This document shows, piece after piece, positions 2,442 to 39,129 of a DNA stretch of 39,129 bases; the stretch's first letter is position 1, and each line of letters opens with the position of its first letter. The position numbers were made by a program, and so were the translations under genes. The notes under the pieces are model-generated. The model had not been told where the DNA came from. It did no database searches and saw only the letters and a list, made by a program, of their open reading frames with translations. Source of the stretch: a phage; sequence record PX309103.1; one strand, given 5' to 3'.

Positions 2442-2464
2442 ACTTAACTATCACTATAGGACTC
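2442..2464 (+). promoter_or_regulatory. Phage RNAP promoter upstream of gene 1 (TTAACTATCACTATAGGACT)
   Basis: Matches the in-genome consensus TAAACTATCACTATAGG found 11 times. Confidence 0.7.
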
Positions 2465-2533
2465 AAGGTCTAAGACTCCAAGTGAAAGACCAAAGAGACT
2501 CTAAGTGAAAGACTAATAACAAGGACTTTAAGT

Positions 2534-5215
2534 ATGAGCGTCATCTCTATTGACAAACACGACTTCTCTGATGTGTCAAACGCCATTGAGCCGTTTAACC
2601 TGCTGGCTGACCACTACGGGCAAGACCTTGCAGTCAAACAGCTTCAGCTTGAGCATGAGGCATACACTGAAGGCGAGCGACGTTTCATCAAAAACCTTGA
2701 GCGACAGACTGAGCGCGGGGAACTGGCAGACAATCAGGTCGCCAAGCCTTTGATGCAGACTCTGGTCCCTAAGATTGCGCAAGCAGTCAAGGAGTGGCAC
2801 GAAGGTCCAGACGGGAAGCTGTCAACCTCTCGTCCTAGCGTAGCGTTCACCATGTTGAGCACTGAAGAGAAGGCCGTCAAGGACCGCTCTATGCGCATCT
2901 CCTGTGAGTCCGCTGCGGTTATCATACTGAAGGTAATACTCTCCAAGCTGGTCAAGCCCGAAGGGATACCGATTACACCTATGGCCTCCGCGATAGGTCG
3001 CACACTTGAGGACGAAATCCGCTTCGGTCGCATCCGTGACAAAGAGAAAGAGCACTTCAAGAAGGCGATAGCTGATAACCTGAATAAGCGTGCCGGGGCA
3101 TCCTACAAGAAAGCCTACATGCAAGCGGTAGAGGCATCCATGCTGGAGCAAGGCCAACTGGAAGATGCGTGGGGGACTTGGAGTCCTACAGAGGCTGTCC
3201 ACGTTGGCATTAAGATGCTCGAGATTGTCATCCAGTCAACACAACTTGTCGAGCTTAAGCGTTACGGTGCTGGCAATGCAGCGACTGACGTAGAGATGGT
3301 CCACCTGTCAGACTTCTGGGTCAAGAAGATGGCACAACGAGGATTCAGCCTTGCGGGTATCGCTCCTGTCTACCAGCCTTGCGTCGTTCCACCAAAGCCG
3401 TGGACTGGTGTCGTAGGCGGTGGGTATTGGGCCAAAGGTCGAAGACCATTGCCACTGATTCGCTTAGGGTCTAAGTCTGCGGTAGCACGTTACGAAGACG
3501 TGTACATGCCTGAAGTCTATGACGCTGTGAATATCATCCAGAATACACCTTGGAAAGTGAACAAGAAGGTATTGGACGTGGTGAACATGGTCGAGAAGCT
3601 GAACAACACGCCTATTGATGACATCCCTCAGATGGAGCCGCTGAAGCCTGAGGACTATGCTGGTGAGACCGAAGAAGAACTCAAGGCATGGAAGAAGGCT
3701 GCTGCTGGTATCTACCGCCGAGAGAAGGCCCGGCAGTCACGTAGATTGTCACTGAGCTTTATCGTTAACCAAGCGAACAAGTTCTCTCAGTTCAAGGCCA
3801 TCTGGTTTCCGTACAACATGGACTGGCGCGGTCGCGTCTACGCTGTGCCGATGTTCAACCCTCAAGGCAACGACATGCAGAAGGGTCTCCTGACTCTGGC
3901 AGTCGGCAAGCCTATTGGTGCTGACGGTTTCAAATGGCTGAAGGTCCACGGTGCAAACTGCGCGGGTGTCGATAAAGTCACCTTCGAGGAGCGCATCAAG
4001 TGGGTGGAAGACAACCACGAAAACATCATGGCTGCTGCTAAGGCACCGATGGATAGTATTGAGTGGTGGGGCAAGTTAGACTCTCCGTTCTGTTTCCTCG
4101 CGTTCTGCTTCGAGTATGCTGGCGTAATGCACCACGGCCTGTCTTACTCCTGCTCGCTGCCGATAGCGTTCGATGGGTCCTGCTCTGGTATTCAGCACTT
4201 CAGTGCGATGCTTCGTGACCACATCGGTGGACATGCAGTAAACCTGACGCCATCCGGTATGGTACAAGACATCTACCGCATTGTGTCTGACCGCATTGAG
4301 GAGGAGCTTAAAGTCCTGCTGATTAACGGTACTGACAACGAGATGGTCACTCACGAGGACAAGAAAACTGGTGAGATTACCGAACGTATCAAGCTGGGGA
4401 CACGAGAGCTGGCCCGTCAGTGGCTGACCTACGGGATGTCACGTAAGGTCACTAAGCGTTCAGTCATGACTCTGGCATACGGGTCGAAAGAGTACGGCTT
4501 CGCAGACCAAGTTTACGAGGACATCGTGATGCCAGCGATTGACTCAGGGTCTGGCGCTATGTTCACCGAGCCGAGCCAAGCGTCTCGCTTCATGGCTAAG
4601 ATGATTTGGGAAGCTGTGAGTGTGACTGTAGTTGCTGCGGTTGACGCGATGAAGTGGCTTCAAGGTGCTGCCAAGCTGCTGGCTGCTGAGGTGAAGGACA
4701 AGAAGACTGGAGAAATCCTGAAGCCTTGCCTTCCGGTACACTGGGTAACACCTGATGGTTTCCCGGTCTGGCAGGAATACCGCAAGAAGGATACCACTCG
4801 TCTGAACCTGATGTTCTTAGGGTCATTCAACCTTCAGCCTACCGTCAACAGAGGTACGAAGAAAGAGCTGGACAAACACAAGCAGGAGTCAGGAATTAGC
4901 CCGAACTTCGTCCACTCACAAGATGGTAGCCACCTCCGCAAGACTGTAGTCCACACGCACCGCAAGTATGGCGTGATGTCATTCGCAGTGATTCACGATA
5001 GCTTCGGGACCATCCCGGCTGACGCTGAGTATCTGTTCCGTGGCGTCCGTGAGACGATGGTCGAGACCTACCGCGACAACGATGTGCTGCTTGACTTCTA
5101 CGAGCAGTTTGAATACCAGCTTCATGAGAGCCAGCGCGACAAGTTACCTGAGCTACCGAAGAAAGGTAAACTGAATATCGAGGACATCTTGTCTTCAGAC
5201 TTTGCATTCGCTTAA
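2534..5215 (+). CDS. Single-subunit DNA-dependent RNA polymerase (T7 gp1 family)
   Basis: 893 aa; motifs DGSCSGIQHFSAM, HDSFGT and C-terminal ...DFAFA match T7 RNAP. Confidence 0.97.
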   Translation: MSVISIDKHDFSDVSNAIEPFNLLADHYGQDLAVKQLQLEHEAYTEGERRFIKNLERQTERGELADNQVAKPLMQTLVPKIAQAVKEWHEGPDGKLSTSRPSVAFTMLSTEEKAVKDRSMRISCESAAVIILKVILSKLVKPEGIPITPMASAIGRTLEDEIRFGRIRDKEKEHFKKAIADNLNKRAGASYKKAYMQAVEASMLEQGQLEDAWGTWSPTEAVHVGIKMLEIVIQSTQLVELKRYGAGNAATDVEMVHLSDFWVKKMAQRGFSLAGIAPVYQPCVVPPKPWTGVVGGGYWAKGRRPLPLIRLGSKSAVARYEDVYMPEVYDAVNIIQNTPWKVNKKVLDVVNMVEKLNNTPIDDIPQMEPLKPEDYAGETEEELKAWKKAAAGIYRREKARQSRRLSLSFIVNQANKFSQFKAIWFPYNMDWRGRVYAVPMFNPQGNDMQKGLLTLAVGKPIGADGFKWLKVHGANCAGVDKVTFEERIKWVEDNHENIMAAAKAPMDSIEWWGKLDSPFCFLAFCFEYAGVMHHGLSYSCSLPIAFDGSCSGIQHFSAMLRDHIGGHAVNLTPSGMVQDIYRIVSDRIEEELKVLLINGTDNEMVTHEDKKTGEITERIKLGTRELARQWLTYGMSRKVTKRSVMTLAYGSKEYGFADQVYEDIVMPAIDSGSGAMFTEPSQASRFMAKMIWEAVSVTVVAAVDAMKWLQGAAKLLAAEVKDKKTGEILKPCLPVHWVTPDGFPVWQEYRKKDTTRLNLMFLGSFNLQPTVNRGTKKELDKHKQESGISPNFVHSQDGSHLRKTVVHTHRKYGVMSFAVIHDSFGTIPADAEYLFRGVRETMVETYRDNDVLLDFYEQFEYQLHESQRDKLPELPKKGKLNIEDILSSDFAFA

Positions 5216-5227
5216 CAGGAGAGAGTT

Positions 5228-5443
5228 ATGAAATTTGCACACAAGCAGGCTGGCGTTAAGGGCGGGACTCAAATCGTGACCGTAACAGAACACAACGGCA
5301 AGGGTCTGGTGAAGACCACGGTCATTCCTACCGAGATGTCAAAGCAGCTTAACGTCCCATTCAAGACCCTAGTCTGTCTTGTGGAATCTAGCCACGAGAA
5401 ATACCTGAAAGACGCAGTGTCCAAGCTGGAGCAGACCAAATGA
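5228..5443 (+). CDS. Hypothetical protein (71 aa) between RNAP gene and the phi1.1-type promoter
   Basis: ORF with AGGAGA RBS; T7 has no gene at this position as far as I recall. Confidence 0.5.
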   Translation: MKFAHKQAGVKGGTQIVTVTEHNGKGLVKTTVIPTEMSKQLNVPFKTLVCLVESSHEKYLKDAVSKLEQTK

Positions 5444-5516: not shown

Positions 5517-5541
5517 ACCCTAAACTATCACTATAGGATTA
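5517..5541 (+). promoter_or_regulatory. Phage RNAP promoter (phi1.1-like)
   Basis: TAAACTATCACTATAGGATT. Confidence 0.8.
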
Positions 5542-5546
5542 GACTC

Positions 5547-5573
5547 AAGGTCATGACTCAAAGTCGTGGCCTT
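5547..5573 (+). promoter_or_regulatory. Conserved hairpin, RNase III-site-like (R1.1 position)
   Basis: AAGGUCAUGAC / GUCGUGGCCUU 11-bp stem with G-U pairs and UCAAA loop; one of 3 copies of the same element. Confidence 0.6.
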
Positions 5574-5611
5574 CATGATTAACCCTAACTCATTCAATCA
5601 GGAGCTACACC

Positions 5612-5795: not shown

Positions 5796-6059
5796 ATGGG
5801 CCGACTTTATAGTGGCAACCTAAACGCTTTCAAAGCAGCGTGTAACAGGCTCTATCAGTTAGACTTCGCTGTCATATCTCAGGAGTTTCAAGACCTTACG
5901 TCACGCCAAGAGTGTATGAGACTCAGGGTAGAGGACCGGGCGGGTAACATATTCGCTCTTGAGTCCTTCGCACACTACGATGAAGACGTACTGTACAACA
6001 CTGCAACAGAATTCCTCAATGGTCTCGCTGACCAACTCGACACATGGAGCAAATCATAA
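5796..6059 (+). CDS. gp1.2-like protein (inhibitor of host dGTP triphosphohydrolase family)
   Basis: N-terminus MGRLYSGNLNAFKAA... matches recalled T7 gp1.2. Confidence 0.8.
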   Translation: MGRLYSGNLNAFKAACNRLYQLDFAVISQEFQDLTSRQECMRLRVEDRAGNIFALESFAHYDEDVLYNTATEFLNGLADQLDTWSKS

Positions 6060-7162
6060 TGACAACGACTATCAAAACTAACCCGCACCGCGCTGTAGAT
6101 TACTCTGAGTCTGGCGTTAAGAAAGCACTGGAAGCAGCCGGGTCTCTGGAAGCTGAAGTGAAGTACGATGGTGTGCGCCTGAATCTCCCGGTCTTCCCTA
6201 CTGGTGAGACTCAATGGTTGAGCCGTGAGTCTAAACCTCTCCCAGCGCTTCAGCATCTGAAGTCAGAACATGGTAGTCCTACCGAATTAACAAACTGTGG
6301 AGACTGGCGCTGGTTCCTGAAGCAAGCAGGACATGAGGTCTCTGGCCTAATGATTGATGGCGAGGTGATGGTCAAAGGCGTGGACTTCAACACGTCTTCC
6401 GGTCTTATCCGCACCATGTGGTCTGACCGCAAGAACTACAAGTGGAACATGAACCCTAAGGCAGATATGGAGACCAAGAAGTCTAACAAGGTTCCCTTCC
6501 AGATTAGCCCTGAGTCCCTACGAGTGGTCGTCTACGGGGTCATCGACCTTAACGTCATCAACGACCCAAAAGCCGAAGGTCCTATTCATAGCGTCACACG
6601 CCTGAAGGCCGAAGCTATCGTCCCTCTCCTCCAGAAATACTTCCCGGAAATCGACTGGGTTCTGTCTGAGTCACACACGGTCTATGACCTTGAGTCGCTC
6701 AGCTCCCTGTACGAAGAGAAGCGTCTGGAAGGACACGAGGGTCTGGTAGTCAAGGACCCGCTTGGTAAATACAAGCGTGGCAAGAAGTCTGGCATGTGGA
6801 AAATGAAGCCTGAGGAGACCATAGACGGGACAGTGTGTGGCCTCGTGTGGGGGACTCAGGGTAAGGCGAACGAAGGTAAGGTCATCGGCTTCGAGGTGCT
6901 ACTTGAGGACGGCATGGTGGTTAACACCTGTGGCCTGACTGAAGAACAGAAGGACGAATTCACAGCTAAAGTCGCTGAATCTAGTGGCTATACCTTGGCT
7001 GGTGGCCCTGTGGTTATTCAGGATGGGACCGAGAAGACCAACCCATACGAAGGCTGGCAGTGTGAAGTCCTCTTCATGGAGCGGTTCCCAGATGGCTCAC
7101 TTCGTCACCCTAGCTTCAAGTGCTGGCGTGGAACTGAAGACAATCCGACCATTAAGAGCTAA
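6059..7162 (+). CDS. ATP-dependent DNA ligase (T7 gp1.3 family)
   Basis: Adenylation motif KYDGVR (EVKYDGVRLNL); start placed at ATG 6059 (GGAG 9 nt upstream, TAATG overlap with previous stop) rather than the ORF-track start 6044. Confidence 0.9.
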   Translation: MTTTIKTNPHRAVDYSESGVKKALEAAGSLEAEVKYDGVRLNLPVFPTGETQWLSRESKPLPALQHLKSEHGSPTELTNCGDWRWFLKQAGHEVSGLMIDGEVMVKGVDFNTSSGLIRTMWSDRKNYKWNMNPKADMETKKSNKVPFQISPESLRVVVYGVIDLNVINDPKAEGPIHSVTRLKAEAIVPLLQKYFPEIDWVLSESHTVYDLESLSSLYEEKRLEGHEGLVVKDPLGKYKRGKKSGMWKMKPEETIDGTVCGLVWGTQGKANEGKVIGFEVLLEDGMVVNTCGLTEEQKDEFTAKVAESSGYTLAGGPVVIQDGTEKTNPYEGWQCEVLFMERFPDGSLRHPSFKCWRGTEDNPTIKS

Positions 7163-7171
7163 CTAAATGTC

Positions 7172-7210
7172 AACCCAGTGGTCTTAGGACTGCTGGGTTT
7201 CTTTGCTTTG
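7172..7210 (+). terminator. Intrinsic terminator after ligase (T7 TE-like)
   Basis: Stem CCCAGUGGUC/GACUGCUGGG with UUAG loop followed by UUUCUUUGCUUUG. Confidence 0.65.
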
Positions 7211-8033: not shown

Positions 8034-8192
8034 ATGACTGACGTAGAGAAGAAGTACATCGTGGAGCTTGAGGGTCACATTCAGTCCTTCGAGGTTCCGG
8101 TGTACGCAAAGTCTCTTGAAGAGGCTACCCTGAAGTCCCAAGAGTATGAGGACGCTGGGTTTGTGGTCGGACGGATTCGTCCTGAGACCTAA
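8034..8192 (+). CDS. Gp2-like inhibitor of host RNA polymerase (52 aa)
   Basis: [17 protein letters not shown]...[10 protein letters not shown] matches recalled T7 Gp2. Confidence 0.8.
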
Positions 8193-9401: not shown

Positions 9402-9871
9402 TGACTCAGAAATATAGACTTAAGGTTGACCGCCACGGGTGGCCTAAAGGTGCTATCGTTACGAAATGTGCGAAAGACCCTGTACCATCATCTGGACTTG
9501 TTCTGGTGGAATCCACTGAGCGTGGCACCTACAAACACGGAGCAGCAGGTCATAACACTCAGCCTGACGGTATGTGGGGGGCGTGGGTTTTAAAAGAAAA
9601 TCTTGAGGAAATTGTAGAGGATAAACCTCAAGTCCTGCCAGCCTCAAGTGTCCCTCCTGTCACCGTTAAACGTGAAGTCCTGACCATCGACAAGATTGGT
9701 GTAGGCCAGACGTTCATCGTCCACGGAAAGCCTGAAGAAGTTTACGTGAAGATTAGCAACTCACACGTCTTCAACCATAAGCGTCTCCAGATGCACACCA
9801 CGGACGCACAGCGCTTCACCCAGCACCTGAATCTAGTGGTCGTAGAATTGGTGGTGTACAATGGTAAGTAA
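9398..9871 (+). CDS. Hypothetical protein (157 aa) inserted between endonuclease I and lysozyme
   Basis: ORF overlaps both neighbours (ATGA at start); I recognise no motif. Confidence 0.55.
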   Translation: MMTQKYRLKVDRHGWPKGAIVTKCAKDPVPSSGLVLVESTERGTYKHGAAGHNTQPDGMWGAWVLKENLEEIVEDKPQVLPASSVPPVTVKREVLTIDKIGVGQTFIVHGKPEEVYVKISNSHVFNHKRLQMHTTDAQRFTQHLNLVVVELVVYNGK

Positions 9872-10319
9872 GGTACAGTTCAACCCACGGTCCCGGACTG
9901 ACGCTATCTTCGTTCACTGTTCGGCTACCAAGCCAGATATGGACATCGGGGTAGAGACCATCCGTATGTGGCACAAGCAGCAAGGCTGGCTGGACGTAGG
10001 CTACCACTTTATCATCAAACGTGATGGCACTGTGGAAGAGGGTCGCCCGGTCAATGTCGTAGGGTCACACGTTAAGGACTGGAACTCACGGTCTGTAGGC
10101 GTCTGCCTTGTAGGCGGAATCAACGCTAAGGGTCAGTTTGAAGCTAACTTCACTCCAGCCCAGATGAACTCCCTGCGCAACAAGCTGGCTGACCTGAAGG
10201 TCCTGTATCCTCAGGCAGAAATCAAAGCACACCATGACGTAGCACCTAAGGCGTGTCCAAGTTTCGACTTGCAACGCTGGCTGTCTACCAATGAACTGGT
10301 CACTTCCGACCGTGGTTAA
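9861..10319 (+). CDS. Lysozyme / N-acetylmuramoyl-L-alanine amidase (gp3.5 family)
   Basis: 152 aa; TDAIFVHCSATKP, GYHFIIKRDGTVEEGR, APKACPSFDL, ELVTSDRG match T7 lysozyme. Confidence 0.95.
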   Translation: MVSKVQFNPRSRTDAIFVHCSATKPDMDIGVETIRMWHKQQGWLDVGYHFIIKRDGTVEEGRPVNVVGSHVKDWNSRSVGVCLVGGINAKGQFEANFTPAQMNSLRNKLADLKVLYPQAEIKAHHDVAPKACPSFDLQRWLSTNELVTSDRG

Positions 10320-12504: not shown

Positions 12505-12514
12505 GTCTAGACTC

Positions 12515-12539
12515 AAGGTCATTCACATCGAGTGGCCTT
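12515..12539 (+). promoter_or_regulatory. Conserved hairpin, RNase III-site-like (R4.7 position)
   Basis: AAGGUCAUUC / GAGUGGCCUU stem; same flanks (AGACTCAAGGTC ... TTTATGATTAGAC) as the 5547 and 35956 copies. Confidence 0.6.
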
Positions 12540-12567
12540 TATGATTAGACTAAACGGAGGATTAACC

Positions 12568-20410: not shown

Positions 20411-20433
20411 CTAAACTATCACTATAGGGAGAC
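20411..20433 (+). promoter_or_regulatory. Phage RNAP promoter (phi10-like)
   Basis: TAAACTATCACTATAGGGAGACC, followed by a GGGAGACC...GGUUCCC 5' stem-loop. Confidence 0.9.
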
Positions 20434-24824: not shown

Positions 24825-24847
24825 CACTATAGGGACTATAGGCCCTT
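24825..24847 (+). promoter_or_regulatory. Phage RNAP promoter (phi13-like)
   Basis: TTAACTATCACTATAGGGACT, flanked by inverted repeat AGGGCCTATAG / CTATAGGCCCT. Confidence 0.85.
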
Positions 24848-35944: not shown

Positions 35945-35955
35945 GTGTTAGACTC

Positions 35956-35982
35956 AAGGTCATTACTATATGTAGTGGCCTT
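35956..35982 (+). promoter_or_regulatory. Conserved hairpin, RNase III-site-like (R18.5 position)
   Basis: AAGGUCAUUAC / GUAGUGGCCUU stem with UAUAU loop; third copy of the conserved element. Confidence 0.6.
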
Positions 35983-36045
35983 TATGGTTAACACTAACTA
36001 GTGGAGGCGACTCTACGTGAAATCTGATAAACCGGGAGGGCAACT

Positions 36046-38871: not shown

Positions 38872-38910
38872 GACCTACGGTCCTTGACCTACAGTGGCTG
38901 TGACCTACAG
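38872..38910. repeat. Array of 3 GACCTAC(A/G)G repeats just inside the right terminal repeat
   Basis: Copies at 38872, 38886 and 38902; counterpart of the left-end CCTACAG array. Confidence 0.6.
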
Positions 38911-38949
38911 TAGTGACGATGAGTTTTGGACCAAAAGTTTGAGACCACA

Positions 38950-39129
38950 TCTCACAGTTCAAGAACCTCAAGTCTCCCCATAGGCCCTCTTTAAGTCCAG
39001 ACCAAAGGCCCTACCCCCAGTCTATCATAAGGTTGGACCGATGGTCAAGACTTCAGGTCGACGATAGGTCTAGGCTATGGCTGGAGGTTAGACGATAGGT
39101 AGGGGCTATAGGTCTGTCTCTGTGTCTCT
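38950..39129. repeat. Right direct terminal repeat (180 bp), identical to 1-180
   Basis: Read directly from sequence. Confidence 0.95.

Follow-up and report, generated by a model that had tools for sequence, protein, structure and literature searches.

Introduction

Upstream of the polymerase gene (gene 1) of phage T7 lie the 0.7 kinase gene, a minor host promoter called C and an R1 RNase III hairpin; the sole phage promoter on that side is phiOL, 2.7 kb away. The first-pass annotation of the DNA studied here had attributed the transcription of T7 gene 1 to host RNA polymerase alone; this is too absolute, because phiOL stands at 405 in the T7 record, ahead of the whole early region. Dubendorff and Studier are said to have engineered a T7 autogene in 1991, in which the polymerase gene was put behind its own promoter, and the locus described below has a functional likeness to that construct. 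In T7 itself, a cassette like the one considered here drives gene 1.1, downstream of gene 1.

Phage promoters directly 5' of the polymerase gene are known from several other T7-like phages. In gh-1 (NC_004665) a promoter called phi1 is annotated at 939-961, about 100 nt before the polymerase gene at 1058. In phiA318 a phage promoter lies 5' of the kinase and polymerase genes and the authors suggest autoregulation (PMC4099482), and for LUZ100, ONT-cappable-seq located the phi1 start site and the authors put forward a positive feedback loop (PMC10134795). These systems differ from the present locus in that the LUZ100 loop involves a MarR-type repressor and may be linked to lysogeny, the phiA318 promoter also precedes the kinase gene, and all three phages belong to different genera, with unrelated promoter sequences and no element homologous to the cassette. 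The SP6 record carries no promoter annotation and is uninformative.

The closest described systems are EcoDS1 and CR8. EcoDS1 (NC_011042 / EU734172; Kayfunavirus) has a 'phi' promoter annotated at 2244-2266, between genes 0.38 and 1, which is identical to ours in 23 of 23 positions. Eleven promoters are annotated in it, at the same gene positions as the eleven found here, and its leader differs by one base in the second repeat copy (CT against TT) and in nothing substantive otherwise. CR8 (NC_023548; Caroctavirus) likewise has a 'predicted promoter' between 0.38 and gene 1 and, after it, a leader with an abundance of AAGACTTTAAGT-like units, but the promoter has another specificity (AAGGAAGGTACACTATAGG) and lies 102 nt, not 75 nt, before the gene, the 0.7 kinase gene is kept, and base pairing between the units of the leader gives a strong hairpin (z = -2.6), whereas the leader studied here has no significant predicted structure. 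A 2026 paper on Kayfunavirus describes CTWAACTATCACTATAGG repeats, one of which lies at the end of the gene whose number directly precedes that of the polymerase gene (PMC13298934). The cassette occurs in about 221 GenBank phage records, in 172 of them at 95-99% identity. The feature is therefore already annotated and genus-wide, and the idea of autoregulation is already published for other T7-like phages, so that the unusualness implied by the first-pass annotation is not supported. Here, we asked how well the sequence of this locus and its relatives supports a self-driven polymerase gene, and what the repeated leader between promoter and gene is likely to be.

Results and discussion

Genome context of the polymerase gene

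The window, i.e. the whole stretch of 39,129 bp that was analysed, is a complete T7-type phage genome with an exact direct terminal repeat of 180 bp (1-180 = 38950-39129). It belongs to Kayfunavirus (K1F-like, T7 group), and the region around the promoter is 94-97% identical to phages of this genus. All features described below lie on the + strand. Gene 1 (2534-5215 in the ORF list) encodes a single-subunit RNA polymerase of 893 aa, which shares 64% identity with T7 RNA polymerase and up to 99% with the best IMG/VR Kayfunavirus loci; its specificity-loop residues N758, N766 and Q768 correspond to N748, R756 and Q758 of T7. The last early ORF, gene 0.38 (2110-2436; 92% identity to EcoDS1 gp0.38 by tblastn), has its stop codon 5 nt 5' of the -17 position of the promoter. 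The 0.7 kinase gene is absent from the window.

A putative early promoter of the host (sigma-70) type, corresponding to T7 A1, was assigned to 416-452 by homology to the 'host RNAP promoter' of EcoDS1 at 469-505 (alignment score 62 of a possible 74); a simple sigma-70 scan did not list it. Judged from this alignment, 416-452 would be the source of the first gene 1 transcripts. The early region probably ends at a TE-type terminator after the ligase gene (7172-7199, a 12-bp stem followed by a T run), and EcoDS1 has its annotated TE in the corresponding position. The only other + strand match in the terminator scan was a weak 5-bp stem at 6643; the scan found no terminator-like site between 2459 and 5215 and no strong terminator-like hairpin from the early promoters to 7172-7199. 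Since no strong terminator intervenes, the earliest transcripts of gene 1 could come from host polymerase, which is also the situation in T7. Downstream of gene 1, the next phage promoter is of the phi1.1 type (+1 at 5536) and is combined with an R1.1-type RNase III hairpin (5520-5590; -17.7 kcal/mol, z = -3.4 for 5536-5600). This element is homologous to T7 phi1.1A/R1.1, and its counterpart is annotated 'phi' in EcoDS1. Two further genes matter for the timing of transcription: gene 2, the host RNA polymerase inhibitor (8034-8189; 92% identity to EcoDS1 gp2 over 52/52 aa by tblastn), and gene 3.5, the amidase/lysozyme (9861-10316; 95% identity to EcoDS1 gp3.5 over 152/152 aa).

A phage-type promoter directly upstream of gene 1

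The first-pass annotation had noticed a promoter consensus match about 75 bp upstream of the polymerase start, and our analysis bears this out. The 17-mer TTAACTATCACTATAGG at 2444-2460 matches the consensus of the genome's own promoters exactly and is contained in a predicted promoter, called phi1 here, which extends from -17 to +6 (2442-2464, ACTTAACTATCACTATAGGACTC). By the T7 convention, +1 is G2459, which leaves a leader of 75 nt (2459-2533) before the gene 1 ATG at 2534. The context of the start is that of a phage promoter: it is intergenic, lies ahead of a gene, and reads CACTATA-GGACTC, with the initiating GG at +1/+2 after TATA. With up to three mismatches allowed, the 17-mer has 11 copies in the window, all on the + strand, compared to 0.07 expected from dinucleotide shuffles. 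The corresponding start sites are 2459, 5536, 7264, 8205, 10572, 16612, 19439, 20427, 24832, 32108 and 38367, and those window promoters that match the annotated promoters of EcoDS1 all precede genes.

When a weight matrix was derived from the ten remaining sites, the one at 2459 scored 27.4 bits on it; the other ten scored 25.2-40.0 bits when each was left out in turn, and the best non-promoter position on either strand reached 16.4 bits. The start sequence GGACTC resembles the weaker class-II style, while the capsid-gene promoter at 20427 starts with GGGAGA. The same matrix scan detected no phiOL-type site in the genome, which makes 2459 its leftmost phage promoter.

Conservation and co-variation with the specificity loop

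We gathered 80 loci encoding relatives of the polymerase and inspected the 150 nt 5' of gene 1 in 56 of them. Wherever the polymerase was at least 88% identical to that of the window, a phage-type promoter was present at the same place in every locus examined. In the T7-, T3- and K11-like loci (at most 64% identity), this place is taken by the 0.7 kinase gene together with the R1 RNase III hairpin. The comparison of this region in K1F-like genomes, which the first-pass annotation had proposed as a check, came out in favor of the promoter: none of its 23 columns varied among 15 K1F-type genomes, whereas 4 of the 8 bases just 5' of it and 12-16% of the flanking coding columns did.

Changes in the site also go along with the polymerase. 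The assignment of loop residues to promoter bases is taken over from established work on T7 and T3. At -8 to -11, the promoter bases agree with the loop of the cognate polymerase and vary with it: the loop triad N/N/Q of the window goes with ACTATCAC. Two loci, L018 and L044, encode polymerases 88% identical to that of the window which carry D and R at the positions of T7 N748 and R756, like T3; in both, all three promoters of the locus including the gene 1 site are AACCCTCACTATAGG (TTAAACCCTCACTATAGG), so that D/R/Q goes with ACCCTCAC. This T3-like state of the loop agrees with the T3-like CC at -10 and -9. CR8 shows a second such switch: its polymerase is 79% identical and has a different loop, and AAGGAAGGTACACTATAGG (GGTACAC) follows gene 1 and also lies 102 nt ahead of it. 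Among the promoters of the L012-type lineage, only the one at gene 1 has A for T at -2, and it may be weakened there. The comparisons support 2442-2464 as a true promoter of the polymerase that the phage itself encodes, and they show that it tracks polymerase specificity and is kept under selection. As indirect evidence, a T7 polymerase equipped with the K1F specificity loop was active and orthogonal on the K1F consensus promoter in E. coli (PMC3458549).

A predicted positive-feedback circuit

We consider it highly probable that 2442-2464 is a functional phage promoter located between 0.38 and gene 1 and that it operates in a positive-feedback sequence. After DNA entry, host RNA polymerase would start at the early promoters near 416-600 and would transcribe 0.3 to 0.38, then gene 1, and lastly the ligase gene as far as TE at about 7.2 kb, giving rise to the first polymerase molecules. 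The new phage polymerase would then initiate at G2459 and transcribe its own gene and subsequently everything downstream, i.e. it would feed back positively on its own supply, and gene 1 mRNA would still be made after gp2 stops the host polymerase. Since gp2 shuts off host polymerase, later gene 1 mRNA could come from the phage promoter only. The loop would presumably be limited by the gp3.5 lysozyme together with the class-II-like start GGACTC (not GGGAGA). T7 lysozyme (gp3.5) inhibits the phage RNA polymerase, and by analogy gp3.5 is a likely brake on the loop in this phage.

We infer initiation at 2459 and the kinetics of the feedback from the sequence; the literature searched contained no Kayfunavirus with a mapped 5' end of a transcript, an assay of transcription in vitro or a mutant phenotype. 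Positive autoregulation, which the first-pass annotation had suggested, can sensibly be expected as a natural consequence of such a promoter, but it may add little if host-driven transcription already supplies enough polymerase. The promoter is not simply a compensation for the loss of the 0.7 kinase gene; this explanation is insufficient because CR8 has both.

Should the promoter be active as predicted, the timing of polymerase supply in K1F-like phages would differ from that in T7. Gene 1 would be transcribed past the shut-off of host polymerase in a self-amplifying loop, which bears on models of infection dynamics in the T7 group. Cloned fragments that include the native upstream region would be autogenes and probably toxic, a point of practical concern where the K1F polymerase and promoter are used as orthogonal parts. 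Compared to what had been annotated before, the present analysis makes modest additions, among them the co-variation with the loop as evolutionary evidence of function.

The leader and its resemblance to the T7 phi1.1B leader

The gene 1 leader (2459-2533, 75 nt) is A-rich, with 43% A and 62% A+T in a 61-nt window that ranks 780 among 39,069 such windows by A+T content. No significant structure was predicted for it: the fold of 2459-2545, i.e. the leader plus the first 12 nt of gene 1, had a minimum free energy of -14 kcal/mol (z = +0.08 versus shuffles), and sub-fragments of the leader as well as the leader of K1F gave z-scores of about 0 to -0.8. Nor did folding an alignment of the lineages reveal significant stability or compensatory pairs in the leader, and Rfam gave no match, either for the whole window at gathering scores or for 2350-2650 at E <= 1.

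The leader ends in a good ribosome-binding site, whose region together with the start codon spans 2521-2536 (AAGGACTTTAAGTATG) and in which GGACTTTAAGTATG has its single occurrence in the window; it is only in T7-like loci that ACTTTAAGTATG stands before gene 1.1. Aligned to T7 5923-6009, the leader from phi1.1B to gene 1.1, the leader and ribosome-binding site of the window (…AGGACTTTAAGTATG) scored 74 versus 32 +/- 6.6 for shuffles, and other leaders of the window scored 25-48. When the identical 15-nt ribosome-binding block was left out, the score was 44 versus 23 +/- 6, and 2 of 1000 shuffles were equal or higher. The cassette of promoter, leader and ribosome-binding site thus appears, on the basis of about 90 nt, to be homologous to the T7 phi1.1B-to-gene-1.1 leader, which suggests that it was exchanged between the two gene positions by recombination, in either direction. 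This likeness is another of the modest additions made here.

The likeness also raises the question of whether transcription of gene 1 is the main purpose of the promoter. The T7 primary origin consists of phi1.1A/phi1.1B and an AT-rich region, and we take the phi1.1B-to-gene-1.1 leader to be part of it. The promoter could accordingly serve mainly as the leftmost entry site of the phage polymerase, for replication priming or as a substitute for phiOL in left-end transcription or processing, with gene 1 transcription as a by-product. That T7 and K11 have an annotated phiOL and this genome has 2459 in the leftmost position fits such a role, as does the fact that only one promoter is left after gene 1, accompanied by an RNase III hairpin and without an AT-rich tract. 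As the T7 segment belongs to the primary origin, the AT-richness of the leader was checked: with 62% A+T, compared to 77% in the T7 origin tract (T7 5930-5990), the leader is not among the AT-richest parts of the genome, and a strongly AT-rich origin tract of about 60 bp after the promoter is not found. Moreover, the strong ribosome-binding site joins the gene 1 ATG, which argues that expression of gene 1 is the direct output. We therefore regard a role mainly in polymerase entry or replication as unlikely, and note that it is compatible with the positive-feedback reading, the two being not mutually exclusive.

The direct repeat in the leader

The first-pass annotation had described a tandem-repeat leader with the direct repeat AGTGAAAGAC at 2481-2490 and 2504-2513. 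Both positions are right and the repeat is real, the exact match being in fact 11 nt long (AAGTGAAAGAC; 2480-2490 and 2503-2513). The term tandem is overstated, since the arrangement is that of a spaced direct repeat within four degenerate units. The repeat search extended the two copies to 2473-2493 (AGACTCCAAGTGAAAGACCAA) and 2496-2516 (AGACTCTAAGTGAAAGACTAA), which are identical in 19 of 21 positions and have a period of 23. They are embedded in four degenerate GACTYYAAGK units, namely GACTC-AAGGTC / GACTCAAGGTC (2460), GACTCCAAGTG (2474), GACTCTAAGTG (2497) and GACTTTAAGTA (2524), the last of which, a degenerate GACTYYAAGT unit, is the ribosome-binding and start-codon region. Tandem Repeats Finder at a minimum score of 30 did not report the leader repeat but reported 10 other short arrays. 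Local exact repeats of at least 11 nt within 60 nt occur four times in the genome, the one in the leader included, versus 0.44 expected. The leader repeat is a genuine small duplication and unexceptional.

The repeat had also been put forward as a possible protein- or RNA-binding site. More specifically, the GACTYYAAGTGAAAGAC repeats could be operator-like sites in the mRNA or DNA through which a phage or host factor controls the translation, stability or elongation of the gene 1 transcript. In line with such a role, the repeat exceeds chance within the leader, 15 K1F-type genomes share unchanged AAGTGAAAGAC cores and differ at the YY positions only, and two AAGT(G/T)(A/T)(A/T)AAGAC-like motifs are present in the leader of every lineage examined, CR8 included. 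In the leader as a whole, 5 of 69 columns vary among the same 15 genomes, not clearly fewer than in the flanking coding sequence. Number and spacing of AAGTKWWAAGAC-like motifs differ by lineage (23 nt in the K1F type, ~13 in the L012 type, ~16 in CR8), and copy 1 is degraded in L018 and L044. Comparable local repeats exist at the three other places in the genome, and GACTCAAGG and AAGAC words recur in promoter-proximal leaders of this phage as part of a common vocabulary. A binding-site role is unsupported because the leader lacks significant structure and compensatory changes, Rfam is blank, the arrangement is not conserved in sister lineages and the words are shared with other leaders. Control through operator-like sites is in our view improbable, and the repeat is most readily explained as a remnant of small duplications that affected a GACTYYAAGT module rather than as a dedicated binding site.

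A broader combination of these ideas would see the cassette in Kayfunavirus and Caroctavirus as a relocated copy of the primary-origin module of the T7 type (phi1.1B and its leader), which would combine in a single place self-amplification of the polymerase, replication priming and control of the translation or transcript fate of gene 1, the latter through the repeated GACTYYAAGT units as sites bound by a phage or host factor; we give this scenario little credence.

Remaining explanations of the promoter-like site

Returning to the promoter itself, it could be a promoter-like relic, or resemble a promoter by chance, and go unused by the phage polymerase in vivo, and its 27.4 bits are indeed near the low end of the eleven sites. 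This is very unlikely, given that only 0.07 matches are expected by chance, that the site is invariant in 15 genomes while adjoining bases vary, and that its sequence has switched in step with the specificity loop in two other lineages, as a fossil or chance match would not.

That the site is a host sigma-70 promoter, as the 'host RNAP promoter' label of the homologous 23-mer in the PE3-1 GenBank record has it, or that the leader is an R1 RNase III site, by analogy to T7, where gene 1 directly follows the minor E. coli promoter C and the R1 hairpin, and in view of the 5' arm GACTCAAGGTC with which the leader begins and which is common to the RNase III-type sites of this phage, can practically be dismissed: the sequence is the phage consensus, the sigma-70 scan found no -35/-10 hexamer pair (16-18 bp apart) at 2400-2533, and of the T7-type R1 site (an irregular hairpin of ~20 bp with the arms GACTCAAGGTCAT…GTGGCCTTYATG) the leader has the 5' arm only, without the 3' arm GTGGCCTTYATG and without excess stability (-9 to -14 kcal/mol, z -0.8 to +0.1), whereas real sites fold better (z = -3.4 for 5536-5600 and -2.2 for T7 R1). 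The mislabelled PE3-1 feature is corrected accordingly to a predicted promoter of the phage polymerase, a further modest addition.

Promoters upstream of gene 1 and polymerase specificity in relatives

In phage PE3-1 (L001, KJ748011) a phage-type 23-mer homologous to the promoter upstream of gene 1, the RNA polymerase gene, lies at 2874-2896, where it is annotated as 'host RNAP promoter'; this label is a mislabel of a phage-type sequence. Five further loci (L012, L013, L014, L020 and L021), which form a sister lineage with polymerases 92-94% identical to that of the window, carry an A in place of T at position -2 of the gene 1 promoter only (CACTAAAGG, approximately 81 nt upstream of gene 1), and the remaining promoters in these loci retain T or G-T. 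The highest promoter use has been reported with T at -2 (PMC3080317). The A at -2 in the L012-type gene 1 promoter may represent a tuned-down version of the positive feedback loop in which the polymerase would transcribe its own gene.

L018 and L044 are IMG/VR contigs of Kayfunavirus-like phages, and the polymerase they encode shares 88% identity with that of the window. Their specificity loop contains D and R at the positions corresponding to 748 and 756 of the T7 enzyme, i.e. T3-like residues, and their promoters are likewise T3-like (AACCCTCACTATAGG). Judged by sequence, these two phages are a natural switch of polymerase specificity inside a close clade.

Early region and gene 1 transcription unit

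A search of positions 1-2440 of the window revealed no phage promoter of the phiOL type, the leftmost phage promoter of T7; the top candidate at the left end (+1 at 425) scored below the reporting threshold of 8 bits. In the T7 and K11 records, phiOL is annotated. A homologue of the T7 0.7 kinase was not found in the window either. An ORF of 71 amino acids (5228-5443) follows gene 1 and precedes the next phage promoter, and is therefore part of the transcription unit of gene 1. Its apparent counterpart in the related phages EcoDS1 and K1F is the 216-nt ORF (gp1.1) annotated directly after gene 1.

RNase III-type hairpins, phi13-type promoter and genome ends

RNase III-type hairpins of one family (TAGACTCAAGGTCAT…GTGGCCTTYATGRTTA), homologous to the T7 RNase III site R1.1, occur at 5544-5590, 9419-9460, 12512-12555 and 35953-35995, and all four sites have good predicted folds (-12.7 to -19.4 kcal/mol). 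Immediately downstream of the phi13-type promoter (+1 at 24832), part of a promoter core is present a second time (GACTATAGG, 24834-24842), so that the initiation region is duplicated over a short stretch.

The window begins and ends with identical copies of a 180-bp direct terminal repeat (1-180 and 38950-39129), and this exact repeat identifies it as a complete linear genome of the T7 type. Just inside the left terminal repeat, CCTACAG is present five times (217-305), and two copies of TGACCTACAGT lie close to the right end (38885-38911). These copies resemble the short repeat arrays adjoining the terminal repeats of T7 as well as the (acctacagtcaac)3 repeat annotated in Citrobacter phage CR8.
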